Shown one piece after another: positions 1,739-43,160 of a stretch of DNA of 43,656 nt. Each line of letters begins with the position of its first letter. Position 1 is the stretch's first letter. The notes beneath the pieces are model-generated. The model worked only from the letters and a program-made list of their open reading frames with translations, made no database searches and was not told where the DNA came from. The DNA is from a virus. Location of the stretch: positions 179,055 to 222,710 of the IMG/VR virus record IMGVR_UViG_3300010352_001565, one strand, 5' to 3'. A program made the translations under genes and the position numbers.

Positions 1739-3157
1739 ATGCCTCGGACTAAGCTAACATACGGAATCGAGTTGGAGTGCACTAAGCTCATGCCCAACGC
1801 GGCTGAGATCATTGCACGCCGCGAGTTTGACAACCATTACGACAACTCCATCAAAGGAAACGATGGCGAGGATCTCCCGCGCGGAGAAGGTGGCGGATCT
1901 GAACTCGTCACCAAGCCTCTGATCATTGAAGCTTACTTGCACGATCGCAAAGCCGTGCTGAACGACCGGAACGATACCAAAGCGGTTGTCCGCGACCTGT
2001 GCAGCTGCGCGCAGTCCGTAAACAAATCGTGTGGTCTGCATATCCACATCGGCTGTCCGCTGGAGAGCACTGGGCGTAGCACTCAGATGAGGAGCCGCTG
2101 GAATCCAGAGCAGACGCGGACGTTTCTCGCCATCGCGCTTGCTCTCGAGGATAAGATGTTTGACCTCTGCCCTCCGAGCAGAAGGAACAACAGCTACTGC
2201 AAAACGATTCGCGAGTTATACACCAACGCAGAGCTTGAGGCCTTTCACCCCACGGGAGAAGTTGTCGCCCGTAAGTGGGACAACGCCAAGCGCTACTGCT
2301 GGTTTAACATCGTCGAGACTCTCCGGATTGACAACGTCCCGTCGTCTCCAGGAACCGTCGAGATTCGCATGCTTGGAGCAGTGCGCAGGTTTGAATACAT
2401 TTGGTCCTGGATTAACCTCTGGCTCAAGATCGGAACTTATGTGGCATTTGCTACTCCAGCTTCTGCGATAATGAGCTGCGTACATTCTGGGGCGCTAGAC
2501 GAGGACATTGAGGCAGTGAGGACCGCGAAGAATTCGAAAGTTTCTCCGGCCGCTGAGCGGTCTCCGAGCATTTCGCGAATTGACGACGAGCATCCGAGAA
2601 ACGGCAGGTCTTTGCCTGTGTTCAACCCTACTCACCAAGCGTGGGAAATTCCAGCGACTCCAAGCTGGTCAGAGTTTCCTGGTGGTGCTGAAGACGGCGG
2701 ATACTCGGGAACGCAGATCAGATACTCTGACAGTGCGGAGACCGACAGCCAGCGGCAACAACGAATGGTTCAGGATTTAGTGAACGCATCTCAGCGGTCT
2801 CGCGAGGTGGCCCAAGCGGCTCCAGCTCCTGCCGCAACTCCAGCTCCTGCCGCAACTCCTGCTCCCGCTCCAGAACCCGCACCTTTACCCCCTCCTCCGC
2901 AACGACGACGAGGGCTTAGGCCGATTCAAGAGCGCATTCGCGATGCTGTTCGAGCTGAGCGCGCAAATGCACAGCAGGAGAACGCGCAGCAAGAGGAGAA
3001 CGTTCAATCAACTCCTCCATCCTACCGCGTGGTTGGAACATCCACCGGTCGATTAACTTCTTCCGGATCGAACGTGACTAGCAGACCGCGAGAGGAGAGC
3101 GAGGGCGGAGACCACTTTAGCGTCCTTGACTACGATGGCTTTGGCGAGCACTATTAA
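1739..3157 (+). CDS. amidoligase paralog B with a Pro/Ala-rich low-complexity C-terminal extension
   Basis: Carries YGIELECT, CGLHIHIGC and VEIRMLGAV. In the amidoligase / gamma-glutamyl-cysteine-ligase-2 fold these correspond to the metal-binding Glu pair, the His pair and the ATP-binding Arg. About 150 C-terminal residues are AAPAPAATPAPAATPAPAPEPAPLPPPP-like, encoded by an 18-bp tandem repeat at about 2821-2870. Confidence 0.6.
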   Translation: MPRTKLTYGIELECTKLMPNAAEIIARREFDNHYDNSIKGNDGEDLPRGEGGGSELVTKPLIIEAYLHDRKAVLNDRNDTKAVVRDLCSCAQSVNKSCGLHIHIGCPLESTGRSTQMRSRWNPEQTRTFLAIALALEDKMFDLCPPSRRNNSYCKTIRELYTNAELEAFHPTGEVVARKWDNAKRYCWFNIVETLRIDNVPSSPGTVEIRMLGAVRRFEYIWSWINLWLKIGTYVAFATPASAIMSCVHSGALDEDIEAVRTAKNSKVSPAAERSPSISRIDDEHPRNGRSLPVFNPTHQAWEIPATPSWSEFPGGAEDGGYSGTQIRYSDSAETDSQRQQRMVQDLVNASQRSREVAQAAPAPAATPAPAATPAPAPEPAPLPPPPQRRRGLRPIQERIRDAVRAERANAQQENAQQEENVQSTPPSYRVVGTSTGRLTSSGSNVTSRPREESEGGDHFSVLDYDGFGEHY

Positions 3158-3240: not shown

Positions 3241-4278
3241 ATGTGCGCAATAATTGGTTGGGCCGGAAAGATCCCAAAAGGCCTGCTGACCCGCATGCTG
3301 ATCGGGGCTGAAACCCGAGGCAAGGATTCGACTGGACTCGCTTTTCGAGCAGTTGAAGATGGGAAGACATGCAATCTATGCTATCGCCACATCGTCCCTG
3401 CCCGCACCTTCGTTGACATCCACAAGGACTTCGTGGGAGACGCCCGGCGTTCATTCCGCGGCATTGCTCACACTCGCAATGCATCTCCTGGAATGCCGAT
3501 CGATAACTCGAACGCGCACCCATACGTCTATCCGTGGGAAAACATGGGCAAGTATTACTTTGCGCACAACGGGCGAATCCAAAACTGGAAAGTTATCAAA
3601 GCGGAGCAGATTGAAATCTACTCCAGAGAGCTGAACGAGCTGATCTCAGAATTTGTGGCGCTTACGGCATCTGGCGAGAAGCCAATGACCGCTGAAGAGG
3701 TTAAGGTCGTCCTGACTGCCCTTGCGAAAGCTGAGCGCGAGCCTGTCTCAAAAGAGCAGGATGCTCTGAAAGCACTCGCTGAGGACAAGTTCAACGCCGC
3801 TCAGGGAATCGCCGCCCGTCTTCGCTACGTCGAAAATGCGACAACAGACTCGATGATTCTCGGACCGTGCATCGAGAACCGCGACTTCAGCGAAGTTGAC
3901 GGTTGCATGGCGCTGGTCTGGATGAAAGCAGACAACGTCTATACCTTCAGGAGCGCTAAAGAAGCTGTTGCGGCGACCGTCGTTTGGAAATACAAAAAGC
4001 CAGCGTCCGGAGAACCGGCAGACGACCAGCTTGTCACCATTGTTGCCAGTACGAAAGAGATTATCGAGAAGTCATTCGACAAAATCGCGGACGCTGTTGA
4101 CTCTGACATCGCGTTCATCAACTACGACGAGGGGCGCATTTACCGGCTTATGCCCAACACCATGGTTGATGAAGGGCGCGTTCCTGTCCACCAGGCAATT
4201 GAGGACGAGTTTTCATCATCGGTCGTTGAAACCGAAACCGCTGAGCAGATCAAAATTGAAGACGCGGGAACCAAATGA
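3241..4278 (+). CDS. class-II (Ntn-hydrolase) glutamine amidotransferase-like protein
   Basis: The N-terminus is MCAIIGW, so Cys becomes residue 1 after Met removal, the nucleophile position in GATase type 2. It also has HTRNASPG and YFAHNGRIQNW (an HNG-I-N-like motif). An AAGGA RBS lies 8 nt upstream. Confidence 0.6.
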   Translation: MCAIIGWAGKIPKGLLTRMLIGAETRGKDSTGLAFRAVEDGKTCNLCYRHIVPARTFVDIHKDFVGDARRSFRGIAHTRNASPGMPIDNSNAHPYVYPWENMGKYYFAHNGRIQNWKVIKAEQIEIYSRELNELISEFVALTASGEKPMTAEEVKVVLTALAKAEREPVSKEQDALKALAEDKFNAAQGIAARLRYVENATTDSMILGPCIENRDFSEVDGCMALVWMKADNVYTFRSAKEAVAATVVWKYKKPASGEPADDQLVTIVASTKEIIEKSFDKIADAVDSDIAFINYDEGRIYRLMPNTMVDEGRVPVHQAIEDEFSSSVVETETAEQIKIEDAGTK

Positions 4279-5770: not shown

Positions 5771-7189
5771 TTATTTGAGCTCCTCAGGGACATCTTCACC
5801 CGGATCTTTCTTTTCAGTCCGGCTGTTTTTGCCTTTTCTGCGAGGCTTATTATCCTCTTCAGCGGCATCTGGGTCGTATTCGATCTCGCTGTCGATCGTG
5901 ATCTTGAAAACGGTAGGATCGACCTTGCCTTTAAAGTGGCCGCAAGCTGCTCCGTGACGGTTGATGAAGATGAAGAAACGAAGCACGTTTTGGACATACT
6001 CCTCTTCAGTGGAGCAGAGACCGATCGCCGCATCCACGATACCTGCTTTTTCGAACGCGCCCTGGAAGCTCGTCATATTTGGAACGGCTGCGTCAACCGT
6101 GTCGCGATTGCAGCGGTCGGGCATGATCACGCAGCAGCCAAGCTCCTTACCCATCGCGCGGGCTTCGGTATAAATGTCAGACTGCTGACGATGGTCCTTA
6201 ATGTCTTTGGTGGCGCTTGGCTTGATCGTTTCAGCGTAGTCGATGAATATCGCTTTTGGGTGCAGATTGAACTGTTTGATGCACGTCTTGGCGTGCGCCT
6301 TGATGTTGGCGATTGTCGCCTGTTTTGCAGCGAAGTCCTTGAAGAGAAGGTTTCCGGCTACGAGCGACCCGAACTTCTCGTGGCAAGCTTGCTTGAACTT
6401 TTCAGGATTCTCATACATGTAGTCCATCGTCTTGCCAGACAAATTAGACAGGGCGCGGCAGATGGCCAACTCCTTTGAAATTTCGCAGGTGTAGTAGAGG
6501 ACATCCTCGTGGATTAACGGGCTGATCATGTTCAGCGCCAGATTCAAGCACACCGCCGTTTTGTAGCGTTTAGGAGGAGCGAGTGGAACGATGAGCCACC
6601 CGGGATGCCAGCCATTTTTCCAAATGCCGTCTAGGAGCGGATAACCCGTGCGGATACCAAATCCTTTAGCAGTAATGTTGTCGACCGCATAGTCGGCGTG
6701 GGCATGCAGCACCCATCCAAGATCGTCAAGATTCTGACCGATAGAAAGAGCCTCTTCAAATATCTTAACGATGTTAGTCTCTTTGATCTTGCCCTCTTTT
6801 ATCGAGTCGATCGATTTGCGCACGGCGTTAACCACGGCTCGTTCGCGGCAGAAGTCCACGGTCTTCTGCACCACATACTCCTTATCTCCAGTGTCCATGT
6901 CCCTGAGCCGCGTGATGTAATCTGCGACGCGGTTGCTGGAATCTTCCTCACCAGCTTCAATGTGGCGAAGATACTCGGAGGACATTTGGTTGAGAGTCTC
7001 CCATCCCGGAAACCTCCCGTACTGCTCGTTGTATTCGATGGCTACCTTTGCCACGGCAGTTGCTTGAACACCGGAGAAAAACTTCGGCTCGACAATCTGT
7101 CCATAGCACTGAAAATCCTGCGGGTGCTTGATAAGGCAACTGAGCAGGAGGTCTTGAAATTCTGCTGTAAATCCAAACTGTTCCATCAC
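5771..7189 (-). CDS. DnaB-like replicative helicase (RecA-fold)
   Basis: It has a DnaB-like N-terminal domain, the loop GYPLLDGIWKNGWHPGWLIVPLAPPKRYKT (LD...G...G.L.h.A with a degenerate Walker A KT) and a Walker-B-like AIFIDYAE. Confidence 0.6.
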   Translation of the reverse strand: MMEQFGFTAEFQDLLLSCLIKHPQDFQCYGQIVEPKFFSGVQATAVAKVAIEYNEQYGRFPGWETLNQMSSEYLRHIEAGEEDSSNRVADYITRLRDMDTGDKEYVVQKTVDFCRERAVVNAVRKSIDSIKEGKIKETNIVKIFEEALSIGQNLDDLGWVLHAHADYAVDNITAKGFGIRTGYPLLDGIWKNGWHPGWLIVPLAPPKRYKTAVCLNLALNMISPLIHEDVLYYTCEISKELAICRALSNLSGKTMDYMYENPEKFKQACHEKFGSLVAGNLLFKDFAAKQATIANIKAHAKTCIKQFNLHPKAIFIDYAETIKPSATKDIKDHRQQSDIYTEARAMGKELGCCVIMPDRCNRDTVDAAVPNMTSFQGAFEKAGIVDAAIGLCSTEEEYVQNVLRFFIFINRHGAACGHFKGKVDPTVFKITIDSEIEYDPDAAEEDNKPRRKGKNSRTEKKDPGEDVPEELK

Positions 7190-11646: not shown

Positions 11647-12708
11647 ATGCCTAACAACGGACCCATACCTTCATACGCCAGTGAGAGACTCATTGGACTC
11701 GAGCTCGAGTACGACGCAAAAACCACCAAGCTCAGCTTGCCAACGACGACACCTTCTGGCTGGTCGCGGCAGTCTGACGGCAGCCTGCAGAATGGCGTTG
11801 AGATGGTGCTCAATCCTCCTCTGACGCTGACAGATGCAACTCCAGTGGTCAAAGAGTTCGCTGACGCTTTCAACCGAGCCCGGACAAACACCTTCAGCAG
11901 CGGCGGCTTCCACGTTCATGTTCAGGTTGCGGATTACACCGAGCATGACGCCGGAAATCTCGCTCGCCTCTACCACCATTTTCAGACGCAGATTAACCGG
12001 TTGCTTGGAAAATCTCGCCACAACAACCACTACTGCCCTCCGTTTACGCACTCCGTGACAGATGCCGATCTTTCGTCGAGATTTAATCTCGGCTCGCTTG
12101 CCAGCACGAGAGCCAGCGCCAAGTCTGCCCGCAAATACCAAGTGGTGAACTTCGCAATGATGCGGTGCACTCGCCACAGCGACCGCACGGTGGAATTTCG
12201 CCAAGGAAGCACCACAAAGCGGTTTGAGTGCATCATTGGCTGGGCGGCATTCTGCGTTGCCATGGTTGAAATCGCCAAGAACGACGCCATGACCAGCGCT
12301 TACATCGGTCAGCAAGCGTCGTGGGAAAACTTCGTGCAGATGCTTCGCGACCACGAATCCATGGTTGGTGCCAGCCACATTGCTGACTGGGTGGTTTGGA
12401 GACGCGAATATCTCGAAGAGACACCGAGCGACGAGCTCATCTCAAAAGCAGTTGCCGCTATGGGACGCCGTCCTCGCGGAATCTTTCACATCTCGCGCGC
12501 TCTCGACATCAACTTGCCGCTGAGCGAGCGGACTCTAAACGCCGCCGTTTCTCGCGGTCTGATTGCTAAGATCGGATCGAAATACCAAGCAAAGTTTGTC
12601 TCATTCGCGGGGTCAGATCTTGAGCAGCTTCAACAAGCCGCGGAAGCCAGGGAGGCAGCTATGCCCGCTGACCGCTCAGGCGAGGTTCTACCTGGAGAGG
12701 AACAATAA
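11647..12708 (+). CDS. amidoligase paralog C
   Basis: Carries IGLELEYD, GGFHVHVQV and VEFRQGSTT, the same three-motif architecture as ORFs 359-1354 and 1739-3157. Confidence 0.6.
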   Translation: MPNNGPIPSYASERLIGLELEYDAKTTKLSLPTTTPSGWSRQSDGSLQNGVEMVLNPPLTLTDATPVVKEFADAFNRARTNTFSSGGFHVHVQVADYTEHDAGNLARLYHHFQTQINRLLGKSRHNNHYCPPFTHSVTDADLSSRFNLGSLASTRASAKSARKYQVVNFAMMRCTRHSDRTVEFRQGSTTKRFECIIGWAAFCVAMVEIAKNDAMTSAYIGQQASWENFVQMLRDHESMVGASHIADWVVWRREYLEETPSDELISKAVAAMGRRPRGIFHISRALDINLPLSERTLNAAVSRGLIAKIGSKYQAKFVSFAGSDLEQLQQAAEAREAAMPADRSGEVLPGEEQ

Positions 12709-27011: not shown

Positions 27012-27086
27012 GCTCCCGTAGCATAGTGGTTATGCGCCAGACTCTAAATCTGTTTTACGCCGGTTCAATCCCGGCCGGGAGCACCA
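27012..27086 (+). tRNA. tRNA with anticodon CUA (amber suppressor; identity unknown)
   Basis: Manual cloverleaf: 7-bp acceptor stem (GCTCCCG/CGGGAGC), D-arm gcat-agtggtt-atgc, anticodon stem ccaga/tctgt with loop C-T-CTA-A-A (U33 and A37 are canonical), a 5-nt variable loop, T-arm gccgg-TTCAATC-ccggc, discriminator A and an encoded CCA. Confidence 0.7.
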
Positions 27087-27103: not shown

Positions 27104-27466
27104 ATGAAAAAACAGAAACCAGGAAGTAAATCTCGTAAGCTCATTGAGGCAGCGGAAAAGTCGCAGACGCCGCAGACGCTGTTGCCCGGCGACTACGTCC
27201 GCCTGATCGGCGGCGAAGAGATCCCTGATGAGTTCGGAGTGATCGAGTGGGATGAGGGAATATCACCGCTTGGTGAGCATTTTTACGTGGTGCAGGTTGA
27301 TCCAAAATGCATCCACGACGAGGACGATGATGGCGCGCGTGAGGTCACGCAAGATCAGATCCAGTTCATCCGCCGTGGAAAGGGAACATTCACCGGTAAG
27401 CAATCTGCCGGCGTCAAGAGGGTGAGAGACTACCTTCAGGCGCACGGACAGGACCAGAAAAACTAG
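27104..27466 (+). CDS. hypothetical protein (120 aa) ending in TAG, in frame with the downstream PTH2 gene
   Basis: Its ATG is 18 nt after the tRNA. Its TAG stop is at 27464-27466. Confidence 0.5.
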   Translation: MKKQKPGSKSRKLIEAAEKSQTPQTLLPGDYVRLIGGEEIPDEFGVIEWDEGISPLGEHFYVVQVDPKCIHDEDDDGAREVTQDQIQFIRRGKGTFTGKQSAGVKRVRDYLQAHGQDQKN

Positions 27467-27520
27467 TGTACAACTCAACAAAGAAAGCATATTCTTATGA
27501 ACATGAATACCCACACGTAG

Positions 27521-27907
27521 GTGTCTGAACCGGCCGCTGATCAAACCATGCGGCTGTACGCCATCGCTCATGCCAACCTCGGCATGGGAACTGGCAAACT
27601 CGCTTCTCAATGCGGTCACGCATTCACTGAAGCGCTTCTTCACTCACAAGAGTTTCAACCTGCTCGTTTTAAGGAATACCGCTCAGACGGGATGGGCACT
27701 AAAGTGGCCCTCTCTGCGAATTCCACCGACGAGATCCACAGCATCAAGTCCAAGTGCGACGAAGCTGGCATTCCGGCGACGATCATCACGGATTCTGGGT
27801 GTGCTAATTTCTTCAACGGAGCCCCGACGATAACCGCCATCGGCGTGGGACCTGCGAAGAGACACGAAGTCAAAAAGATCCTCGGGCGGTTAAAACTGAT
27901 CAACTGA
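27521..27907 (+). CDS. peptidyl-tRNA hydrolase, PTH2 family
   Basis: LGMGTGKLASQCGHA and GTKVAL...GIPATIITDSGCANFFNGAPTITAIGVGP...ILGRLKL align motif by motif with archaeal and eukaryotic PTH2 (LGMGKGKVAAQCSHAA ... [21 protein letters not shown]...VTGHLKL). The track start is a GTG. The first ATG is at about 27548 and has no obvious SD. Confidence 0.8.
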   Translation: MSEPAADQTMRLYAIAHANLGMGTGKLASQCGHAFTEALLHSQEFQPARFKEYRSDGMGTKVALSANSTDEIHSIKSKCDEAGIPATIITDSGCANFFNGAPTITAIGVGPAKRHEVKKILGRLKLIN

Positions 27908-27945: not shown

Positions 27946-28251
27946 ATGACAACGACAACGAATATCGCTAGCACACCGCTGACCTTCACCACCCGCGAAC
28001 AATACGTCGCTTGGCGCGCCCAGTGGCGCAAGGAATACGCCGAACTCAGCTCCAGAATCCGAAAGGAAAACCTCGCGCTCAAGGACGCCTTCCGCGGAAA
28101 AGGAACGGCTTCCACGTGGACAATCCGGCATAACCTGGTGGTTCTCCGCAGCACCGCCAGAGCCATGCTTGAGATGCGCGCCGCATCGAAGGTCCGCGCT
28201 CAAGAGCAGCATAAAGCGGCTCATCCGACAGAGCTGCTTGTCAGTGAATAA
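27946..28251 (+). CDS. hypothetical protein (101 aa)
   Basis: AGGAAACTAATAAT lies upstream of the ATG. Confidence 0.45.
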   Translation: MTTTTNIASTPLTFTTREQYVAWRAQWRKEYAELSSRIRKENLALKDAFRGKGTASTWTIRHNLVVLRSTARAMLEMRAASKVRAQEQHKAAHPTELLVSE

Positions 28252-33629: not shown

Positions 33630-34454
33630 ATGAGTGCTGAGCCACTTCAAACGTCCGCCAATAGCCCAGATTCGCTTCCGCTGGTCGGTTACACAATCGA
33701 CCAGCTTAAAGCTTATATCCTTCGATCGCTTGGATCTCCGATGTGGAGCGTGGAGGTCACCCAACAGCAAGTCCTTGATTGCATAAACGACGCGCTTGGG
33801 AAGTTTTCTCAGTGGTGCCCTCAGCCAAAGTTTGGGTCGGTCAAGATGGTTGAGGGCCAATCAGCCTACCTCAAAGGAGTCGACGTTGGCCAGGGAATCG
33901 CCCAGATTGACTTTGTCGAGCCGATGCCGCTCCAGTACGAGCTCTTCTACGGCAACCTTTTCAACAACGGTCCGCTTGTTGGACGCGGTCTCGAGGAGAT
34001 GGACATGTGGCTCAGGTGGAGAAAGACCTGGAAGCGGGTCATGTCAGTTCAGCCAGACTGGATCTACGACGAGGTCAACAGGGTCCTTCTGATACACAAT
34101 CCGATTGACCGGTACCATGCAGGGATCATTTGTTACGGCAACTATGAGCGGACAGAGCGCCTGCCAATGACAGGAGCCCAGTGGGTCAAGGAGTTTGCCC
34201 TAGAGAAAGCCCGGTACCAGTATGGCGAGAATATGTCCAAGTTCAGCGGCGCCATTCCTGGTCCGCTTAAAGACCTTCAGATGGACACCTCCAAGCGCGA
34301 CAAAGCCGAAGCCCGCATGGAGAAGCTGCTCGAGAAGCTCCAGGGAATGCAGACCAGCACCCCCATCATGATCGATACCATCTTAGCTTTACTGATTCCA
34401 GCAGGCTTGGCAGTATCTAGTCTGTGGAATACTATGTTTACGAGTTGGTGTTAA
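33630..34454 (+). CDS. hypothetical protein (274 aa), possibly virion-associated
   Basis: I recognise no motif. The CCCTA-gtatt-TAGGG hairpin lies just upstream. Confidence 0.45.
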   Translation: MSAEPLQTSANSPDSLPLVGYTIDQLKAYILRSLGSPMWSVEVTQQQVLDCINDALGKFSQWCPQPKFGSVKMVEGQSAYLKGVDVGQGIAQIDFVEPMPLQYELFYGNLFNNGPLVGRGLEEMDMWLRWRKTWKRVMSVQPDWIYDEVNRVLLIHNPIDRYHAGIICYGNYERTERLPMTGAQWVKEFALEKARYQYGENMSKFSGAIPGPLKDLQMDTSKRDKAEARMEKLLEKLQGMQTSTPIMIDTILALLIPAGLAVSSLWNTMFTSWC

Positions 34455-35287
34455 TGCCTGACAACCGCGTCCTTTACGTCGGAAAAGGACACGGTTCGCG
34501 GATGAGTTTTCACCAAAAAGTTATTGACCATCCTCAAAATAAGCTGAATCAGCGTCCGATGTACCAAGGGCTGCGCGCTGAGCTCACACCTGGAAAGTCG
34601 TTTATCGCGCGAAAGGTGTTTGAGTCCGCCGACGAGATCGTGTGCCTTCTCGAAGAGCAACGGCGAATCCACGAATACGGATTCGATAATCTGTTAAACG
34701 TGGCTTCTCACGCCTTCACTGGACGCCGAATGAAACCAGCTGTTGGAAGGCTTATCGCTTCTAAGCTCAAAGCCTATGTTCAACGCTGTCGCGATCAGTA
34801 CGGATCTGGGCACCCTCCAGAAGTTGCTGCCAAAATCGCGGCGTCAAACCGCGGAAAGCAGCTAAGCTCAGAGCACATTCAGAAAATTCGTGATCTCCAT
34901 GCGTCTGGAAAGATGGACCACGTTCATGTTGTGTTTACTGACGCCGGACGCCGAGCGCAGTCTGAACGCGGCTTCTCTGAAGAGCACCGCAAGGCGCTGT
35001 CCATATCCTGCCGCGGTAGGAAGTACCCAAACAGAAGGCGTCCTGGAATCATTCAAAAACAGGATAAAATGAGGTACAAAGGAGTGTCGCTGTTTAAAGG
35101 AAAGTGGGTGGCTAGGATCACAATCGAAGGCAAGGTAAAGATGGTTGGAGTGAGGTCAGATGACCGCCAAGCAGCCGTGCTGTACGACAACGCGGCTGAG
35201 AAGCTGTTCGGAAAGAGACCGAACGCCACAGAGCGCTCAGAGCAGGTCCAATCTGCGTGGGCAACGGCGTCAAGTTTGAAATGGTAG
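34424..35287 (+). CDS. GIY-YIG homing endonuclease with NUMOD3 and AP2 DNA-binding domains
   Basis: The N-terminus YYVYELV...NRVLYVGKG is GIY-YIG-like. KIAASNRGKQLSSEHIQKI is NUMOD3-like. YKGVSLFKGKWVARITIEGKVKMVGVRSDDRQAAVLYDNAA is an AP2 domain. The start is a GTG that overlaps the upstream gene by 31 nt. Confidence 0.7.
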   Translation: MEYYVYELVLMPDNRVLYVGKGHGSRMSFHQKVIDHPQNKLNQRPMYQGLRAELTPGKSFIARKVFESADEIVCLLEEQRRIHEYGFDNLLNVASHAFTGRRMKPAVGRLIASKLKAYVQRCRDQYGSGHPPEVAAKIAASNRGKQLSSEHIQKIRDLHASGKMDHVHVVFTDAGRRAQSERGFSEEHRKALSISCRGRKYPNRRRPGIIQKQDKMRYKGVSLFKGKWVARITIEGKVKMVGVRSDDRQAAVLYDNAAEKLFGKRPNATERSEQVQSAWATASSLKW

Positions 35288-35952: not shown

Positions 35953-36205
35953 TAGGAGGTTCGGCTTTGGCTTTCACCGGAGGTTGCTCGGCTTTCACCG
36001 CGGTAACCTCATTCACCAGCTCTTGGTAGTCTGCGATAATGGCTTGGGCTTCCTGAAGCATCGCCGCAGTCATGATCATCACATTGGCTCTAGCATTAAA
36101 TTGTGCGGCGCGGCGGCCAAGAGTTAGTTTATCCACATTCTTTAGAACATGTCGATTAAATTTTCGCTGTGCTACACGTCGTGCAGAGCGCACCTGATCA
36201 AGCAA
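35933..36205 (-). CDS. possible small minus-strand protein in the gap upstream of the GT2 gene
   Basis: The plus strand has a 195-bp ORF-free gap here. The minus ORF has a coiled-coil-like sequence. Its low-complexity end overlaps the stop of the NTase gene. Confidence 0.25.
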   Translation of the reverse strand: MLDQVRSARRVAQRKFNRHVLKNVDKLTLGRRAAQFNARANVMIMTAAMLQEAQAIIADYQELVNEVTAVKAEQPPVKAKAEPPTTPSAP

Positions 36206-37747
36206 ACCGTTAACCTCTGGAAATCCAGGGCAAAAGATCCCAGCCAGGTCGAGGTCATCGTTGCTGTCGATGCCACTGATACAGCCGGCATCGAGGTCTG
36301 CGAGCAGATGAGAAAGAGCAACGGAGACAACGACACGTTCGACTTCGTTATCCAGGGGTCAGAGCCGTTCAATTGCGTCAAGGGCTGGAACCTTGCAGCT
36401 GAATACTGCCGCGGCGACGTCCTGATCGCGATCTCTGATGACTTCTCACCTCCTGGACACTGGGACTCTCAGCTCATCGGAAGCTTAAGACCTGGATGGT
36501 GGTCTGAAGAGTGCGTGGTCCACGTAAACGATGGCTATGTGAAGACCATATGCACTCTTCCGATTATCACCAGAAAGCGCTATGACAAGTTTGGGTACAT
36601 CTACCACCCAAGATACCAGTCGATGTTCTGCGACACTGAGCTTACAGAGCGCGCATACCAAGACGGAGTGGTTATCGAAGCCATGCACCTCCTGTTTGAA
36701 CACGAGCACCCTGACTGTGGCAAGCGGTCCGGAGACGCTTTTGACGCCCACCACGCTTCAAAACAGAGGTGGAACGAGGGAGAGGCGATTTTCAACGAGA
36801 GGAAGAAACTCGGTTTCCCAAGTGACTCTGAGCTTGAGCAGCGCAACTCGTTTGTGGCATATTTCCAAGTCACGAAAGATGACTTCTGCTTGCTTGAAGT
36901 TTGCTTGAGGCTTGTCAGCGAGGGAGTAAAGTCGTTCCGGTTCTGCATCCCAAGCGAGTACTGGTCTGGAAAGGTGGTAAGCCAAGAAGAAATCGCGCAG
37001 GTCGAAGACGTTCATAAGCGCCTGGTCGCTGACGGACTCAACTCAAAGCTGAAGATCTTTGACGTCAAGAGTCACCGCACAGGAAAGGGACTGCTGGTAG
37101 ACGTTGAGGCCGGTGTCCGTAATGATTCTCTGGAGTGGATCCGCAGCGACGGCTTTAAGCACATCCTCGTGGTTGATGGGGACGAGCTATGGCGCACTGG
37201 GACGCTCACGCTAATCCAGCGCTGCATTAACAGCGTTCAACCGGATTCCATCAGCTGCAGGTGCATTCCAACCATCGGCCTTCCAGGACTTCCGATCGAA
37301 GGGGCTCAGGATCTCGTTGGGGTGTACATCGGAAACGGAAAAATCTTCGATAGCTGCAGGACTCCTCGCGGGAACAAGAAAGCTCTGATTGACTCGCATA
37401 ACGTCATCCATTTTACAGCCACGCGGAAAACGATGGATGAGATCATCAAGAAGCACCGAGAATCAGGTCACTACGACGACCCAAACTACGACTTCGAGGG
37501 ATGGATCTCCAGAGTGCTTCCAAACGTGCATCCAGGGATGCGCAACGCCCACATGTACAGGCCTTACCAAATCTGGCCGTTGATCAGAGCATGGACTGAC
37601 GATGAACTCGCAGACATCCCTGAATCAGTTAAAAAGTACCTTTCGCTCGCTAAGCTTGAACCTGTAAAGACTGCCAAGCAGCCAAAACGCCGCATGATAC
37701 CGTTTGCGGAGTCCCTGTCGCGCCCCAGCAACTACCGGCACGTCTAA
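36149..37747 (+). CDS. GT-A fold (GT2-like) glycosyltransferase with a C-terminal extension
   Basis: N-terminal SIKFSLCYTS ... EVIVAVDATD ... KGWNLAAEYCRGDVLIAISDDF matches the GT2 NxGxAxARNxGxxxAxGxYIxFLDxDD block. It is 532 aa. A second DGDE lies in the C-terminal half. Confidence 0.55.
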   Translation: MSIKFSLCYTSCRAHLIKQTVNLWKSRAKDPSQVEVIVAVDATDTAGIEVCEQMRKSNGDNDTFDFVIQGSEPFNCVKGWNLAAEYCRGDVLIAISDDFSPPGHWDSQLIGSLRPGWWSEECVVHVNDGYVKTICTLPIITRKRYDKFGYIYHPRYQSMFCDTELTERAYQDGVVIEAMHLLFEHEHPDCGKRSGDAFDAHHASKQRWNEGEAIFNERKKLGFPSDSELEQRNSFVAYFQVTKDDFCLLEVCLRLVSEGVKSFRFCIPSEYWSGKVVSQEEIAQVEDVHKRLVADGLNSKLKIFDVKSHRTGKGLLVDVEAGVRNDSLEWIRSDGFKHILVVDGDELWRTGTLTLIQRCINSVQPDSISCRCIPTIGLPGLPIEGAQDLVGVYIGNGKIFDSCRTPRGNKKALIDSHNVIHFTATRKTMDEIIKKHRESGHYDDPNYDFEGWISRVLPNVHPGMRNAHMYRPYQIWPLIRAWTDDELADIPESVKKYLSLAKLEPVKTAKQPKRRMIPFAESLSRPSNYRHV

Positions 37748-38005: not shown

Positions 38006-39262
38006 ATGAGCGACACCAAAAAACGCACCCCTCACAATTCTCAGTGGTCAATCGTAACTCTTAAAGAGCCAGTCCTGTGGTCCAGGACGGACAGCGAAGT
38101 GTGGATGCTGAATCCAACAGTTCGATACGTCATGAACTCAGATCAGCTCGAGCACCTCAACCACCTTGTTGACACTTGCTCAGACCTGCGAAATTCCGCG
38201 TTCCACAAGCCTCTTAACGGCCTTGCGAATCTCGCTCAGAAAAAGATTCTTGTCGAGCGCTATCGCGGACGCGGAGTCGGAGACCTGCTATTCATGACAG
38301 GTCCTCTGAATTACATCCGGCACATTTCAGGACACAGCGCGAAAATAGAGTTTTATGCTCTCGCTGAGAGGTCGCAAGTTCTCCAGCTGCATCCCGCTCT
38401 CGCTCACAAGAGCACGCTTGCTGGACCGCTGATCTACGACACCATCAACCAGTATGACTACCAGTGGTTCTCGGACTGCGTAACTGAATACGACGAAGAG
38501 AAGGATCAGCTCAACGTGTACGACGCGCTGTTCAAGCAAATCGGCATCGATCCGCAGAGCGTCGGAGCAGAGTTCAAGCGACCAAGCATTCACCTTGACG
38601 AACAGGACTTCGCGAATCTTGACACTTTCTACTACTTTGTATATGGAGATCGGCACATCGACTTGCGCAAGACAGGCTACTACGTGGTGGCTCCTCTGAG
38701 CAATGGGACGCTGAGATCGCTGCCGTACGCCTCCTGGCTAGAAATCATCTCTGAGCTGTCGAAGAAGCGCCCTGTAGTTGTGATCGGCCAGATGTCTGAA
38801 AGAGTTCCTCCGATGGACATGACTGGTGGAGAATTCTACTCCCAGGTTAACCAGCTTGCTCCGAACGTTATCAATGCCATGGGAAACACCCAGCTTCGCG
38901 TCGTGTCAGCCATTATCGCGAGAGCAACTGGCGTGGTGTGCCTGGACTCTGGCCCACTCTATATTAGCCAAGCTTTGCGCACGCCTGCCATCTCAATCTG
39001 GGGACCGCATCATCCTGGCGTTCGCATCGGATACGACAAGGACTACATGGAGCTTGCTATCTGGAATTCGAGTGCATGCAGCTACGCACCGTGCTTCGCG
39101 TACCACGGGTTTCCGACTCAAAAATGCCCACAAGGAGATTCTCAGCGCATTTGCGAAGTTCTAAAGGTCTCGCCCGTCGAAAGCGTGATAAATAAGCTTG
39201 AGAAAATCGAATCTGGAAATCCGTCCGTCACATCTTTCAAGGCCGCTAAACCCACCAAGTAA
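38006..39262 (+). CDS. GT9-family (ADP-heptose:LPS heptosyltransferase-like, GT-B fold) glycosyltransferase
   Basis: GVGDLLFMTGPL is the GT9 N-terminal motif. NAMGNTQLRVVSAIIARATGVVCLDSGPLYISQALRTPAISIWGPHHP matches the RfaF/WaaC C-terminal donor-binding block. Confidence 0.6.
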   Translation: MSDTKKRTPHNSQWSIVTLKEPVLWSRTDSEVWMLNPTVRYVMNSDQLEHLNHLVDTCSDLRNSAFHKPLNGLANLAQKKILVERYRGRGVGDLLFMTGPLNYIRHISGHSAKIEFYALAERSQVLQLHPALAHKSTLAGPLIYDTINQYDYQWFSDCVTEYDEEKDQLNVYDALFKQIGIDPQSVGAEFKRPSIHLDEQDFANLDTFYYFVYGDRHIDLRKTGYYVVAPLSNGTLRSLPYASWLEIISELSKKRPVVVIGQMSERVPPMDMTGGEFYSQVNQLAPNVINAMGNTQLRVVSAIIARATGVVCLDSGPLYISQALRTPAISIWGPHHPGVRIGYDKDYMELAIWNSSACSYAPCFAYHGFPTQKCPQGDSQRICEVLKVSPVESVINKLEKIESGNPSVTSFKAAKPTK

Positions 39263-39263
39263 T

Positions 39264-39722
39264 ATGCCTGAGCGCGAACTACCACAGCTTCCTCCCATTG
39301 ACATGGGAGATGACTTTAAATTGGATCTGTCATACTATTTGACCCAAAGCTACGACGACATAGGGCAGGCTTCAAGCGAGCTCCCTGCGGTCATCGAGTG
39401 GGTCAACATGAAGCTCCAGGAGATGGTTGAATCTCGGCTGATCGCGAAACAGCGCATAAAGGAGCTTGAAGCTGAAGCCTACTTCGATCTTAAAGGAGGA
39501 AGGTTTGCTGAGAATTACTCAGACAAGATGACAGAGACCTCCTTGGCGATGGCTGTAGCGCTTGACGAAAAGGTCAAATCAGCTCACCGAAAGCATGCTG
39601 TTCTGGCTGGGTGGGTTGAAAGACTGTCAAATTTACAAGGTTCTCTCGTGGCGAAGCTTGACCTTACTCGGTCATCCGAAGCCACTCGCCGCCAACTGAT
39701 AAGCAAACACGATTCTGAATAG
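39264..39722 (+). CDS. hypothetical protein (152 aa) ending in TAG, in frame with the SSB gene
   Basis: The ATG at 39264 follows the GT9 stop. The track ORF 39198-39722 overlaps the GT9 gene. Confidence 0.45.
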   Translation: MPERELPQLPPIDMGDDFKLDLSYYLTQSYDDIGQASSELPAVIEWVNMKLQEMVESRLIAKQRIKELEAEAYFDLKGGRFAENYSDKMTETSLAMAVALDEKVKSAHRKHAVLAGWVERLSNLQGSLVAKLDLTRSSEATRRQLISKHDSE

Positions 39723-39731
39723 TACAAATTT

Positions 39732-41243
39732 ATGAGTAATCAAGAAAAAAGTCCAGCATATCTGTCTCTCCTCGAGGAAGAGACAAGTTACATGCAAGCT
39801 AACACCTCTAACAAGGTGAAGCGCATCAAGATCCCTCTCGGACACGCGTGGCTCATGCGGTTCCTTCCGGTTGAACTGGGCCCGCGCAAATCGTTTTTTG
39901 CTCGCGTCGCAAATCACTGGGTTAATCGCCGTCCCATTCCTTGCCGACGCCACACTCATCCCGACTTTGGCGGAGACCCTCACGCTCCCTGCGCCATGTG
40001 CGATGCTTCCGAAGAGCTTAATGGCCACGGATCTCAGCGCATCTCGTCGATTGGATACGGCGCGCGGTCCATCAGCCAGTGGGTTTTGTTCGCACTGGTC
40101 TTCGAAAAAGATGACGGCGAGCGCAGCGACGTTATTAAAGCTCCTGACATGTGGGACGCTCATGAGTTTCAGATCACGAAAAACTCGTTTGAGGATCTCC
40201 TGAGCATCTTCAGAAAGGGAACGCGCCGCTGCCCGCTGAGCATCCTTGACCTCGTTCAAGGTCAGGACATTTGGGTTACGCAGAAGAAAACTGGCATACG
40301 CTTCGCTCCTGAAATGCCGAGCGCGATAACCAACAACCAAGACAAGATGCAGTCGATCGTCGACAAAATCTGGTCCGGAATTAAGTTCCAAGAGCCAAAG
40401 TTCCTTAGCTCTCGCGAACTTGAAGACGCCGCTGACAAGCTGCGAGACTCAGCTGAAGACGCTGGTCGTGGCCGTGGAGACGACCGTGATCGTGGTCGCC
40501 GAGGTGAAGACGAAGTTGAAGACTACGGGCGCGGACGCCGAGACGACAGAGGTCGCGGGCGCGACGATGACCGCGGAAGTCGCGGGCGTGACGACGATCG
40601 AAGCAGGGGCGGATACGACTCTGAAGACGATGCTCCTCGCGGGCGTCGCGGCGATGACGCTCCTCGCAGCAGGCGCGGAGAAGATGACGATGCTCCTCGC
40701 GGGCGCCGTGGAGATGATGAAGATGCTCCTCGCGGACGACGCGAAGAAGAGCCAAGAGGCCGGCACGACGACGAAGATGACGCTCCTCGCGGGAGGCGCG
40801 AGCGAGACGCCGATTCCGGACGAGATGACCGAGGGCGCGAAGATGACGACCGTGGGTCAAGAGGACGCAGTGACGATCGAGGACGCGGCGAAGACGACAA
40901 CGAAGAACGCTCTGCTCCGTCTGCTTCTCGCCGAAGCATGACTCCTCCGTCGGTGTCTCAGACTCCGCGCCAGGCACCTCCGTCTGCTTCAAAAACGCTT
41001 CCTCCTCCACCTGCGCGCGGCGGGACTAACGGAGCGCAAGAGCAGTCGATTGATGATGACGAAGCCATTCCAGAGGAACGCAGAGATCCCGCTCCTCCAG
41101 AGTCTATGCCAGAGCCCGAGCCTGAAGCTCAAGCTCCTGCAGACGCTCCTCCGCCCGTGGCTGCAGCTGGCGCTACGCCGTCAGCTCCCCGCTTGTCGCA
41201 GCGCATCCGCTCTGGAATAAACAGCCTTGACACCAGGAAATAA
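39732..41243 (+). CDS. T4 gp32-like zinc-binding ssDNA-binding protein with a long RG/D-rich disordered C-terminal tail
   Basis: RFLP at residues 43-46. Zinc ligands C71, H74/H76, C87 and C90 (CRRHTHPDFGGDPHAPCAMC); C87 and C90 are exactly as in gp32. The tail (residues 245-392) contains six DDAPRGRRG(D/E)D repeats. Confidence 0.65.
   Translation: MSNQEKSPAYLSLLEEETSYMQANTSNKVKRIKIPLGHAWLMRFLPVELGPRKSFFARVANHWVNRRPIPCRRHTHPDFGGDPHAPCAMCDASEELNGHGSQRISSIGYGARSISQWVLFALVFEKDDGERSDVIKAPDMWDAHEFQITKNSFEDLLSIFRKGTRRCPLSILDLVQGQDIWVTQKKTGIRFAPEMPSAITNNQDKMQSIVDKIWSGIKFQEPKFLSSRELEDAADKLRDSAEDAGRGRGDDRDRGRRGEDEVEDYGRGRRDDRGRGRDDDRGSRGRDDDRSRGGYDSEDDAPRGRRGDDAPRSRRGEDDDAPRGRRGDDEDAPRGRREEEPRGRHDDEDDAPRGRRERDADSGRDDRGREDDDRGSRGRSDDRGRGEDDNEERSAPSASRRSMTPPSVSQTPRQAPPSASKTLPPPPARGGTNGAQEQSIDDDEAIPEERRDPAPPESMPEPEPEAQAPADAPPPVAAAGATPSAPRLSQRIRSGINSLDTRK
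40464..40908 (+). repeat. imperfect tandem ~33-bp repeats in coding sequence (gacgatgctcctcgcgggcgccgtggagatgat) encoding the SSB tail
   Basis: All six frames are open here, which explains the spurious overlapping ORFs 40405-41010(-), 40523-40939(-) and 40420-40941(+). Confidence 0.55.
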
Positions 41244-41245
41244 AT

Positions 41246-42643
41246 ATGGCCAAAGCTGCGCCTGAAAAGCCAACGAAGCCAACCAAGAAACTCAAGGCTG
41301 GCTTCTCTAACAGCGACCTTAAAGATCGAATCGTAGCCAGCGTCAAGAGGATTGCTCCTCGCAATAAAGACGCTGGATCTATTGAGGTTTGCCGCACTAA
41401 CAAGGAAATCTTGTCAAGGGTTCGCTACGTCCTGACCACTGGCATAAAGCCATTCGACGATGCTGTCGGCGGTTTTCCATTTGGACGCGTAGTCGAGCTC
41501 TACGGGTTGGAGTCTTGCGGTAAGACTGCAGTCTGCATGCGCTCTGCAGTCAGAGCTCAGAAGCGTGAGATCTACGAGCGCATCAAAGTCGAGGACACCG
41601 AAAAGATCGAGTATGTCTTGCGCAAGATCCCGAATGACGCTGACGTGACAGTGCTCTACATTGACAACGAGCAGTCCCTTGAAGATGACGAGAAGATTGT
41701 CATTGAGGACGTTGAAATCGATGCCGTGCTTGCTCGCTGCGACACCGTGGAGCTTCTGTTCAAGACGATTGACAAGACTCTCGACGAGATCTCAGCGTTC
41801 GAGAAACAGACTGGACGCCAGCAGTTCGTGGTAGTCATCGTAGACACCATCGCAGGAACATCTTCGAAAGAAGAAATGACGAAGGACTGGGGAAAAGACG
41901 ACTACTCTCGCCAGCCAAAGCAGCTCCGCGAAGCGTTCCGCAGAATGACGCGCAAGATCAACCGCCAGAACGTCTGCATGATCTGCACCAACCAGGTGTC
42001 GGACTCTTACAAGGCCGCCCAGGCTGGAAAGAAGGGTAACAAGTCGACGCTTCCACGAGACCAGGACTTCTCAACGTTCGGTGGAAGGGCACTGAAGTTC
42101 TACGCGACTGTCCGCATCTTCATGTTCAAGATTCCTGACGTCAAGTATACGCTTGTCAAAGGAGCCCAGTTTGCCGCTGGTTTCTTGGTGGGTTTCTTCA
42201 CATCAAAAAACAGGCAGGTAAAACCGCTGCGCGAAGGTCGCATGGCGCTGCTATTCGATCGCGGGCTTGATAACACATTCAGCATCCTTGAGAGCTTGAT
42301 CTACTACGGATTCGCGGTGTATGACAAGGAAAATGGAGGTTACGCGTTCAGGTTTAACGCTTGGAAGATTCCAATGACCACCTTCGGTGGGTCTAACGCG
42401 ATTGACCTTGAAGAGGGAGATGCTGCTGAGGAGGAAAGCCGATCAGAGCGCAAGAAGAATCCGCGCATCGAATCTCGAGCTGAATGGCCCGCGTTTTACG
42501 AGGCCCACAAAGCAGACTTCGACGCCATGTGGGCTGCGGCAAAGAATTACATCTTCGCCACTGAGGGCATTGGCGGTTTCGTTGCTTCTCGCGAAGATGC
42601 AGAAGATGACACCGACGCTGACAGCACTGTAGTTGAAGATTGA
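41246..42643 (+). CDS. RecA/UvsX-like recombinase
   Basis: LTTGIKPFDDAVGGFPFGRVVELYGLESCGKT is the RecA P-loop signature. VVVIVDTIAGT is Walker-B-like. The C-terminal tail is acidic. Confidence 0.7.
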   Translation: MAKAAPEKPTKPTKKLKAGFSNSDLKDRIVASVKRIAPRNKDAGSIEVCRTNKEILSRVRYVLTTGIKPFDDAVGGFPFGRVVELYGLESCGKTAVCMRSAVRAQKREIYERIKVEDTEKIEYVLRKIPNDADVTVLYIDNEQSLEDDEKIVIEDVEIDAVLARCDTVELLFKTIDKTLDEISAFEKQTGRQQFVVVIVDTIAGTSSKEEMTKDWGKDDYSRQPKQLREAFRRMTRKINRQNVCMICTNQVSDSYKAAQAGKKGNKSTLPRDQDFSTFGGRALKFYATVRIFMFKIPDVKYTLVKGAQFAAGFLVGFFTSKNRQVKPLREGRMALLFDRGLDNTFSILESLIYYGFAVYDKENGGYAFRFNAWKIPMTTFGGSNAIDLEEGDAAEEESRSERKKNPRIESRAEWPAFYEAHKADFDAMWAAAKNYIFATEGIGGFVASREDAEDDTDADSTVVED

Positions 42644-42644
42644 T

Positions 42645-43160
42645 ATGCCAAGAATTATTGAATACGAAGACTCTCCCGACCTTCAGACGATGATCGTCGG
42701 GATGGTAACCAACACATCCTACGCCGAATTTGCTCCTCTACGCGAGCATGAAGTGCGAATCACATCATGCTTCAAGTGCGCGTACAAGGAGCAGTCGGAG
42801 GATGCTGACCCACAAACTGCTATCTCTGGGCCGCACCCAGCGAAGCTCCAGCAATTCAAAGGTCCGATCAAGCTGCAAGTCAGCTCAGACTACTGCGTTG
42901 TCATGGACTACTGCTTCTGGTTGAATGCTCCTCAGAACAAGAAGGTGGCGGCAGTTCACCACGCGCTGATGCAGATCGAGGTGCGCACAAAGCGTGAAAC
43001 CGTAGAGCTCAAGACCCGCAGACCGGATGTCGTTGAGTTCTCGCACACCATCACGCGGTTTGCCAACGACGTGGACTCCATATCTGGACTCCTACCGGTC
43101 CTCATGCAAGCTGGTGAGCGCTTCCGCGCGCAAATCAGTTCTAACCAGCAGACCGCTTAA
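42645..43160 (+). CDS. hypothetical protein (171 aa), possibly a recombination accessory protein
   Basis: The ATG is 2 nt after the recA-like stop. The track start at 42633 is a TTG. Confidence 0.45.
   Translation: MPRIIEYEDSPDLQTMIVGMVTNTSYAEFAPLREHEVRITSCFKCAYKEQSEDADPQTAISGPHPAKLQQFKGPIKLQVSSDYCVVMDYCFWLNAPQNKKVAAVHHALMQIEVRTKRETVELKTRRPDVVEFSHTITRFANDVDSISGLLPVLMQAGERFRAQISSNQQTA

Follow-up and report, generated by a model that had tools for sequence, protein, structure and literature searches.

A predicted suppressor-gated peptidyl-tRNA hydrolase module in phages, with leader stop codon and tRNA anticodon changing together

Why should a peptidyl-tRNA hydrolase gene in a phage open with a GTG codon that stands directly after an in-frame TAG? 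The question is raised by an open reading frame (ORF) of 128 aa at 27521..27907 (+ strand, GTG start), whose presence was confirmed in a stretch of viral DNA of 43,656 nucleotides, i.e., positions 179,055 to 222,710 of the IMG/VR virus record IMGVR_UViG_3300010352_001565, hereafter the window. An earlier note on this DNA had described the ORF as a PTH2-type hydrolase of a phage, encoded next to a tRNA gene, and had taken 27521 as its start. This start is probably wrong, as the GTG directly follows the in-frame TAG at 27518 and an ATG-led leader lies upstream; most likely, the true start is ATG 27497 or ATG 27503, with the predicted frame running through the TAG, and the ORF as called is probably the mechanical remnant of this longer PTH2 frame. 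Comparison with relatives shows a clade of PTH2 genes that would be translated through a nonsense codon at the start of the ORF, the type of which is matched to a tRNA of the same phage, while in a few relatives the leader codon is probably a four-base codon rather than a nonsense codon. On balance, we consider it probable that the phage controls PTH2 synthesis through a gate formed by its own non-standard decoding tRNA, an arrangement that would match the recycling of peptidyl-tRNA to suppression. The features on which this reading depends are as follows.

27012..27086, + strand: tRNA with anticodon CUA (ARAGORN; Rfam RF00005, 64 bits against a gathering threshold of 29)
27497..27520, + strand: leader ATG AAC ATG AAT ACC CAC ACG TAG (M N M N T H T stop)
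27497..27907, + strand: proposed full PTH2 frame including the in-frame TAG; the leader-stop layout is kept in 103/108 relatives
27548..27904, + strand: PTH2 catalytic domain of 119 aa, starting at strand 1 (MRLYAI), as placed by Pfam, PDB alignment, and the fold model

Because its anticodon is CUA, the tRNA is predicted to be an amber suppressor. Its cloverleaf and anticodon are those of a nonsense suppressor with predicted read-through activity; it is of the elongator type, with G1:C72, A73, an encoded CCA, a short variable arm, and a 7-nt loop, CUCUAAA. It is the only tRNA in the window and lies 435 bases upstream of the ORF at 27521 and 410 from ATG 27497, on the same strand, with a 120-aa ORF between tRNA and PTH2, which bears out the remark that a tRNA gene is nearby. 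An initiator-type tRNA that would start translation at UAG was considered and ruled out by the G1:C72 pair and by the absence of three G:C pairs in the anticodon stem. The amino-acid identity of the suppressor was sought by a nearest-neighbor comparison with 171 other phage tRNAs, which gave no assignment.

Whether the leader stop is peculiar to the window can be judged from its relatives, which were collected from IMG/VR (38 loci, plus further scans), JGI metagenomes (80 of 224 relatives), and GTDB (8 loci), and which come mostly from soil, freshwater, and sediment. The tallies refer to 108 loci, each with a distinct sequence over the first 240 bases of the PTH2 domain, in which the frame upstream of the domain was read. 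An in-frame stop is found within 45 codons upstream of strand 1 in 103 of them (98 TAG, 4 TGA, and 1 TAA); among the other five, three have an ATG..TAG leader that is one base off, one is without a stop, and one is too short to judge. The layout in the 103 loci is a short ATG leader, the stop, 0-38 codons, and then the PTH2 domain, and 96 of the 98 TAG loci have no ATG between stop and domain. The commonest leader is ATG plus one codon (AUG ACG UAG), and leader length ranges from 1 to 17 codons, with the frame always kept. The surroundings of the stop are likewise conserved: a purine follows it directly in 103/103 loci, the codon on its 5' side encodes Thr in 74 loci, and the codon on its 3' side is GTT or GTA in 71. 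The gating amber codon of the window, at 27518-27520, stands in this conserved context, ACG-TAG-GTN, with GTG 27521 immediately after it. A purine 3' of a nonsense codon is reportedly the classical context for efficient suppression, as Bossi in 1983 and Miller and Albertini in 1983 are said to have described.

In the protein collection, the closest relatives appear as proteins of 101-107 aa that begin at the Met of 'GMGxGK' and thereby lose the first beta-strand. On their contigs, the missing strand 1 (LRLYA[IL]V) is encoded in frame upstream without an ATG, GTG, or TTG and is preceded by 1-2 TAG codons and a short ATG-led leader; each of these contigs carries one tRNA(CUA), 0.9-1.5 kb upstream. 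As no ATG is available between stop and domain, gene callers pick the internal Met of GMGxGK and drop strand 1, so that the leader stop causes a systematic mis-annotation of the PTH2 of this clade in public records. Calls from the internal Met, with strand 1 lost, include AUZ95035.1 of Agrobacterium phage Atu_ph07 (L043 3049-3381), XYS97424.1 of Sinorhizobium phage Phosso (L044 3049-3381), and the proteins P0002-P0009. The phage of the window is also present in ENA, JGI, and Logan assemblies (longest contig 82.8 kb), in which its PTH2 is called as 128 or 119 aa. Control genes have a plain ATG and no leader stop in XacN1, Xoo-sp13, RsoM2USA, phiM12, phiCbK, and Myrna, and plain ATG starts were also found in L037 and L039-L042, two archaeal and three other bacterial PTH2 genes.

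The same layout could be read as a true upstream ORF after which PTH2 re-initiates at a non-canonical codon, or as the remains of decaying pseudogenes, given that read-through is deduced by comparison, that ACG-TAG-GTT could act as a nucleotide signal, and that one relative, L036, is frameshifted. We hold this to be most improbable, since the frame between leader and domain is kept across leaders of 1-17 codons and the domain is conserved in more than 100 loci, its catalytic residues being invariant (the Lys, among 29 relatives) or mostly kept (the Asp, with Glu in four); moreover, some relatives have a second TAG inside the domain, and the identity of the stop tracks the anticodon.

This last relation concerns all three stop codons. 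At 73 of the 98 loci with a TAG leader, a same-strand tRNA(CUA) lies in the flank, its 3' end often ~35 nt before the leader ATG. Three of the four TGA leaders are accompanied by a tRNA(UCA) (L026, L146, and L147), which in L146 and L147 is the only tRNA within 10 kb either side, and the single TAA locus (L012) has a tRNA(UUA) 130 nt upstream. A non-cognate suppressor without the cognate one was seen once (L095). When TAG and non-TAG leaders are set against CUA and non-CUA tRNAs, the counts are 73, 1, 0, and 4, with a hypergeometric probability of ~4e-6 that ignores shared descent; the four non-TAG cases amount to three lineages. The fourth TGA locus is that of Atu_ph07, with the leader ATG ATT GGC GAA CAC TTT TGA ATT, and the sole suppressor tRNA of this phage has the anticodon UCA (PMC6102473). 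Phosso, a sister phage of Atu_ph07 and, like it, in culture, with a PTH2 that is 73% identical, has the TAG leader ATG AAG TAT TAG GTT; a tRNA(CUA) was predicted from this leader and then found, as the sole tRNA within 20 kb either side and on the same strand. The Phosso tRNA is annotated as 'tRNA-Undet' (L155 13367-16538; record 169971-173142) and its flanking genes are one for a cysteinyl-tRNA synthetase and a short one (250 aa) annotated as 'serine-tRNA synthetase', the products of which are possible dedicated charging enzymes for the suppressor.

These comparisons bear on the view that the window encodes an ordinary auxiliary PTH2, serving tRNA recycling or acting against host toxins that acetylate aminoacyl-tRNA, which lies near a tRNA through the clustering of translation genes and the leader stop of which has no role. 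Many phages with tRNA arrays do carry a PTH2 without a leader stop, the domain looks catalytically intact, and ATG 27548 could be used as a normal start in the window; nevertheless, we consider this view unlikely, as it leaves unexplained the leader stop in 103/108 loci, the joint change of stop and anticodon, the in-domain TAGs, and the four-base case described below. The specific proposal of the earlier note, a counter-defense against toxins of the TacT/AtaT type, gains no support: no toxin-related gene was seen in the neighborhood, and the leader stop is again left unexplained.

In three relatives (L014, L022, and L027), a second in-frame TAG stands inside the PTH2 domain, at the same alignment column ('..ADP TAG VAEEYQ..'). 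This column is mostly Glu or Asp in homologs, which hints at the amino acid that the suppressor would insert. In four diverged loci (L006 4085-4260, L010 5810-6000, L103, and L126), the tRNA(CUA) itself lies inside the PTH2 leader between two in-frame TAGs, in the order ATG leader, ACG TAG GTT, tRNA, ACG TAG GTT, and PTH2; the motif ACGTAGGTT is present on either side of the tRNA in these loci, and the reading frame is open through the leader-embedded tRNA (38-71 codons).

The leaders that are one base out of frame with the domain, those of L034, L013 (= L148), and L089, point to a variant of the same arrangement. In L034 (leader 5979-6003), the PTH2 frame is restored if UAGA is read as a four-base codon, and the adjacent tRNA (5781-5857) has an 8-nt anticodon loop, A-UUCUAA-A, that holds UCUA, the complement of UAGA; this locus is a possible case of natural four-base decoding. 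In L013/L148 and in L089, the frame is restored by UAGG as a four-base codon. The only tRNA near the L013/L148 copy is an odd 'tRNA-Arg(CCU)' (L148 16799-16876) with the loop CGCCUAA, which has G33 and holds CCUA; as a decoder of UAGG, it is suggestive only. The L034 tRNA resembles engineered tRNAs that decode UAGN quadruplets (PMC4764823), inasmuch as an 8-nt loop with UCUA faces a frame-restoring UAGA, whereas it differs from them in that it would be natural, and only one locus has such a matching tRNA, the window having none.

Further unusual tRNA-like genes of 78-83 nt, with 8-nt anticodon loops, occur at seven loci directly downstream of PTH2 and its partner gene. U33 is absent in six of the seven (CAGCAATG, CCGCAAGG, TAGCAATA, TAGTAATA, TAGAAATA), and T is present at this position in GTAGTAAT. 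Their positions are as follows.

L006, 4908-4986: downstream tRNA-like gene
L008, 7365-7444: downstream tRNA-like gene
L032, 6402-6480: downstream tRNA-like gene
L035, 6352-6429: downstream tRNA-like gene
L086, 3709-3791: downstream tRNA-like gene
L117, 2332-2411: downstream tRNA-like gene
L126, 1004-1081: downstream tRNA-like gene

Is the leader stop then one of many in a phage that has recoded TAG generally, in the manner of code 15, with PTH2 as one recoded gene among others? Suppressor tRNAs are a hallmark of recoded phages, the coding density of L014 rises from 0.75 to 0.86 with TAG as sense, and the genomes examined are partial, so that late genes could be recoded elsewhere; for the window, the test covers 43.6 kb, and the genome as a whole is probably much larger (at least 83 kb). 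However, the window is 92% coding in the standard code, its density going from 0.92 in code 11 to 0.91 if TAG is taken as sense; its long genes are intact, and TAG serves as a terminator. The neighborhoods of the relatives have code-11 densities of mostly ~0.8-0.97, lower where tRNA arrays fill the flank, with no consistent rise when TAG is read as sense, and most of the loci gain nothing. When the window was scanned for the order ATG, 1-10 codons, stop, and long ORF, PTH2 and one weak case at 42630 emerged, and general recoding would not put a stop at one conserved spot; it is thus decidedly unlikely in our estimation. The weak case (42606-43160) consists of an ATG with 7 codons, a TAG at 42630, and a TTG that opens an ORF of 175 codons (42633-43160); it is probably due to chance, since the base after its stop is a pyrimidine and its leader shares sequence with the end of the recombinase gene. 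An ORF at 39198-39722 that ends in TAG in frame with 39732-41243 was considered as another read-through candidate and set aside, as the two look like ordinary adjacent genes.

The position of promoter-like sequences bears on where translation would begin. In the large soil group of relatives, a promoter of the form TTGAC(A/G), 16-17 nt, TAxxxT occupies the spacer of ~35 nt that separates the tRNA from the leader ATG, and a match of at least 9/12 with the -10 element ending 6-9 nt before the leader ATG was found at 48/90 loci, as against 2% of 3079 control ATGs. This position predicts a leaderless mRNA and thereby supports the leader ATG as the real start. The corresponding element of the window is the following.

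27467..27495, + strand: weak sigma-70-like promoter TGTACA-17 nt-TATTCT, 8/12 matches (-35 at 27467-72, -10 at 27490-95)

From its end to ATG 27497 the distance is 1 nt, and to ATG 27503 it is 7 nt; a promoter that abuts the ATG in this way would again predict a leaderless or nearly leaderless mRNA, although the signal in the window is weak. Three Verrucomicrobiota contigs from metagenome-assembled genomes (L131, L132, and L133; one contig of 1.83 Mb) carry the tRNA(CUA), the promoter, an ATG ACA TAG leader, and PTH2, which suggests either a prophage or the lineage that hosts the soil group; the PTH2 neighbors in L132 had no PHROG matches.

The enzyme behind the stop is assigned with little ambiguity. 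Pfam PF01981 (PTH2) matches the ORF at 27521..27907 with 84.1 bits (cut-off 23; E 1e-23) over profile positions 2-115 of 115, the match beginning at ORF residue 10-11, i.e., at the Met encoded at 27548, and the ORF also matches PHROG 1866. PDB sequence matches are all to Pth2, the top one being the M. jannaschii structure 2zv3 (E 1e-17). The AlphaFold model has a moderate pLDDT of 63 with a shallow alignment, and a Foldseek search of the PDB with this model placed only Pth2 folds among the top 14, with TM scores of 0.50-0.80 (13 at least 0.71) and E-values down to 4e-10. The earlier assignment to the PTH2 type is therefore upheld, and the motifs on which it had been based are present as GMGTGKLASQCGHA, DSG...APTITAIGVGP, and RLKL; the ORF encodes a PTH2-type hydrolase with a predicted enzyme activity. 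The phage origin likewise stands, with a replication module that comprises DnaB, a DNA polymerase, an NAD ligase, and a UvsX-like recombinase.

Numbered from Met 27548, K17 and D82 stand opposite K18 and D86 in the alignment with the S. solfataricus Pth2 (1xty), two residues that mutagenesis reportedly identified as catalytic; T90 of 1xty corresponds to Ala. Like the archaeal and eukaryotic Pth2 proteins (2zv3, 1xty, and human Bit1/PTRH2, 1q7s), to which it is 26-35% identical in structural alignments, the protein of the window has the alpha/beta fold with the Lys and the Asp. Unlike them, it has Ala for Thr90 and scores under the equivalog cut-offs of NCBIfam (TIGR00283, 80.6 vs 82; NF003314, 83.3 vs 126), which places it in a divergent phage clade and not among the archaeal orthologs, and the archaeal genes have ordinary starts.

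A PTH2 in a phage is an ordinary finding, because the archaeo-eukaryotic type has already been published in phages, and any novelty attached to its mere presence is not sustained. It is distributed across jumbo phages, where its archaeo-eukaryotic affinity was remarked upon (Iyer et al. 2021, PMC7824862), and it lies within the tRNA arrays of cluster C mycobacteriophages (PMC5966550). By tblastn, relatives at 30-37% identity were recovered in 61 cultured-phage records, many of them annotated as peptidyl-tRNA hydrolase, while a megablast search with 20 kb around the PTH2 gene gave no match to cultured phages. The PTH2 genes of jumbo phages, mycobacteriophages, phiCbK, phiM12, Myrna, and XacN1 share with the window the Pfam family, the fold, and residence in large phages, often near tRNA genes; nevertheless, those of XacN1, Xoo-sp13, RsoM2USA, phiM12, phiCbK, and Myrna start at a plain ATG, whereas the clade of the window ('LRLYA..GMxxGKxASQAGHA') is predicted to be gated. 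What is new is the 5' end of the gene, i.e., a predicted suppressor-gated PTH2 module in which stop and anticodon change together. A literature search, with most subscription journals outside it, found no report that links peptidyl-tRNA hydrolase or Pth2 to suppressor tRNAs or recoding, and neither the main recoding preprint nor a 2026 jumbo-phage survey mentions the PTH2 enzyme.

The third conserved element lies downstream of PTH2, and a further ORF separates the leader from the tRNA.

27946..28251, + strand: 'down101' partner gene, 101 aa, conserved downstream of PTH2
27104..27466, + strand: ORF of 120 aa ending in TAG (27464), in frame with the leader and PTH2

A homolog of down101 is found within 1.5 kb downstream of PTH2 at 75/90 loci with enough sequence, where it usually abuts or overlaps the PTH2 stop; the homologs of Atu_ph07, Phosso, L013, and L019 are N-terminal portions of longer proteins. 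Its model (pLDDT 77) predicts a hairpin of two helices, and the protein has no match in Pfam, PHROGs, PDB sequences (profile search), or PDB folds (Foldseek). The window contains a leader, stop, purine, and domain in frame, a cognate same-strand suppressor, and a predicted helical partner directly downstream. The 120-aa ORF has no family match in Pfam or PHROG and no homolog among the ORFs of the related loci searched. No TAA or TGA intervenes between it and PTH2, and an active suppressor would lead a fraction of the ribosomes to a 269-aa fusion; as the related loci searched do not have the ORF next to PTH2, this fusion is treated as incidental, and the ORF is probably not part of the core.

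Taken together, the favored reading would be that of a three-part phage module composed of a non-standard decoding tRNA (an amber suppressor in the window), PTH2, and a small helical protein. The PTH2 mRNA, probably leaderless, would start at ATG 27497 or 27503 and meet TAG 27518 a few codons later, the purine after the stop providing a context that may favor read-through. The catalytic domain would be reached only when the phage tRNA outcompetes the host release factor at the leader codon, and the output of PTH2, and probably also that of the downstream gene, would be set by suppressor efficiency. Read-through and the slow decoding of stop or four-base codons would raise drop-off and the number of stalled non-stop ribosomes; PTH2, made in step with suppression, would release the trapped tRNAs, and failed attempts would be cheap (a peptide of 2-7 residues) because the test codon stands at the very start. 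The earlier note had named recycling at suppressed stops among its possible roles for the enzyme, without evidence and with the suppressor tRNA overlooked; comparative data now favor the idea.

The same leader-stop architecture would equally serve a homeostat, in which PTH2 counters the suppressor, by hydrolyzing peptidyl- or N-blocked aminoacyl-tRNA(CUA) or by otherwise cutting read-through, such that more suppression would yield more PTH2, less suppression in turn, and a fixed level of read-through. In prfB, too, the mRNA of a translation factor carries its test codon early, and 13/67 long + strand stop-to-stop ORFs in the window end in TAG, so that unlimited suppression would damage the phage's own genes. 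The substrates of known Pth enzymes are peptidyl-tRNA and N-blocked aminoacyl-tRNA rather than one particular tRNA species. This general lack of tRNA-species specificity speaks against a homeostat, as does the absence of any sequence sign of suppressor specificity, and the conserved partner gene is left unexplained, as it is in the favored reading. We regard the homeostat as rather unlikely, while it remains the most probable of the alternatives.

Several observations weigh against the gated, feed-forward reading or limit it in the window. No suppressor was found in the flank examined at 25/98 TAG-leader loci, many of them on short contigs, and XacN1 has CUA suppressors along with an ungated PTH2 of another clade. 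Since the loci share descent, locus counts overstate the number of independent events. Where the tRNA lies between two leader TAGs, its processing would sever the leader from the coding part; either the tRNA sequence would be translated through, or tRNA processing would compete with PTH2 translation. An ATG between stop and domain occurs in only 2/98 TAG-leader loci, of which the window is one: both ATG 27548 and GTG 27521 follow the TAG, so an obligatory gate, with no other start, does not apply here, and these codons may allow suppressor-independent synthesis, the gate being partial or leaky in the window. Shine-Dalgarno sequences cannot rank the start sites, because most genes of the window are without one, and the promoter match, with 8/12, falls under the promoter-scan threshold. 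Lastly, the feed-forward purpose of the gate, with a peptidyl-tRNA load that would rise with suppression, is one that we infer, and a negative-feedback role fits the gate architecture equally well.

The gated PTH2 module can be set beside known systems in which decoding controls a translation factor. The prfB gene (RF2) regulates itself through an early in-frame UGA, and ArfA is made only when tmRNA, i.e., trans-translation, fails. In both, as in the module, a rescue or termination factor is subjected to an early decoding test in its own mRNA; in contrast, the test of the module would be passed by a phage suppressor or four-base tRNA and not by frameshifting or mRNA truncation, and its factor, a hydrolase, acts away from the ribosome. 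The lambda bar minigenes (AUG AUA UAA), and the toxicity of minigenes in pth mutants, offer a second parallel, since the commonest leader, AUG ACG UAG, belongs with its two codons to the class of ORFs from which peptidyl-tRNA is shed; unlike a bar minigene, however, the mini-ORF is in frame with, and would continue into, the hydrolase that clears such products. In recoded phages (code 15 or code 4; crAss-like, Lak, and others), a phage suppressor tRNA likewise reads an in-frame stop in a phage gene, and stop-codon recoding has been proposed to act in timing or regulation. In those phages, in-frame stops are spread over many, mostly late genes, whereas the module involves one gene, one conserved place, and surroundings in the standard code.

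Suppressor tRNAs occur in many phages that otherwise keep to the standard code, but their targets have so far been obscure, and the authors of the XacN1 study could not find targets for its amber suppressors; a conserved, position-specific target would provide a concrete, testable circuit. As a wider proposal, the orphan suppressor tRNAs of standard-code phages (amber, ochre, or opal), natural four-base decoders of some lineages included, might form one half of a dedicated circuit, with a PTH2 that carries the matching test codon, and its helical partner, as the other half, which we put forward as a tentative idea. If true, this would be a natural sensor-effector pair in which a rescue enzyme appears only as host decoding is subverted, and it would supply the first conserved target for such suppressors along with evidence of natural quadruplet decoding. 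The module would tie gene output to tRNA activity, and it suggests that suppression carries a cost that phages must pay; it would also account for the shortened PTH2 calls of Atu_ph07 and Phosso in GenBank, and its compact tRNA/leader pairs are possible parts for genetic-code expansion.

In some relatives, another ribosome-rescue function is encoded nearby, as tmRNA genes lie within a few kb of PTH2 in L013 (758-1149) and L030 (8286-8634). In the window, a gene resembling HNH or homing endonucleases (34424-35287; PHROG 99, 314) lies between a gene at 33630-34454, which weakly and partially matches a head-tail adaptor family, and the genes that follow. The window also encodes a DNA polymerase, a DnaB-like helicase along with a second helicase, a UvsX-like recombinase, and an NAD-dependent ligase, and, in addition, three amidoligases, glycosyltransferases, and an amidotransferase. 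The three amidoligase-like genes, the class-II glutamine amidotransferase-like gene, and two glycosyltransferase genes (359-1354, 1739-3157, 3241-4278, 11647-12708, 36149-37747, and 38006-39262) stand among the replication genes, and this set is reminiscent of phage systems for the hypermodification of DNA bases.

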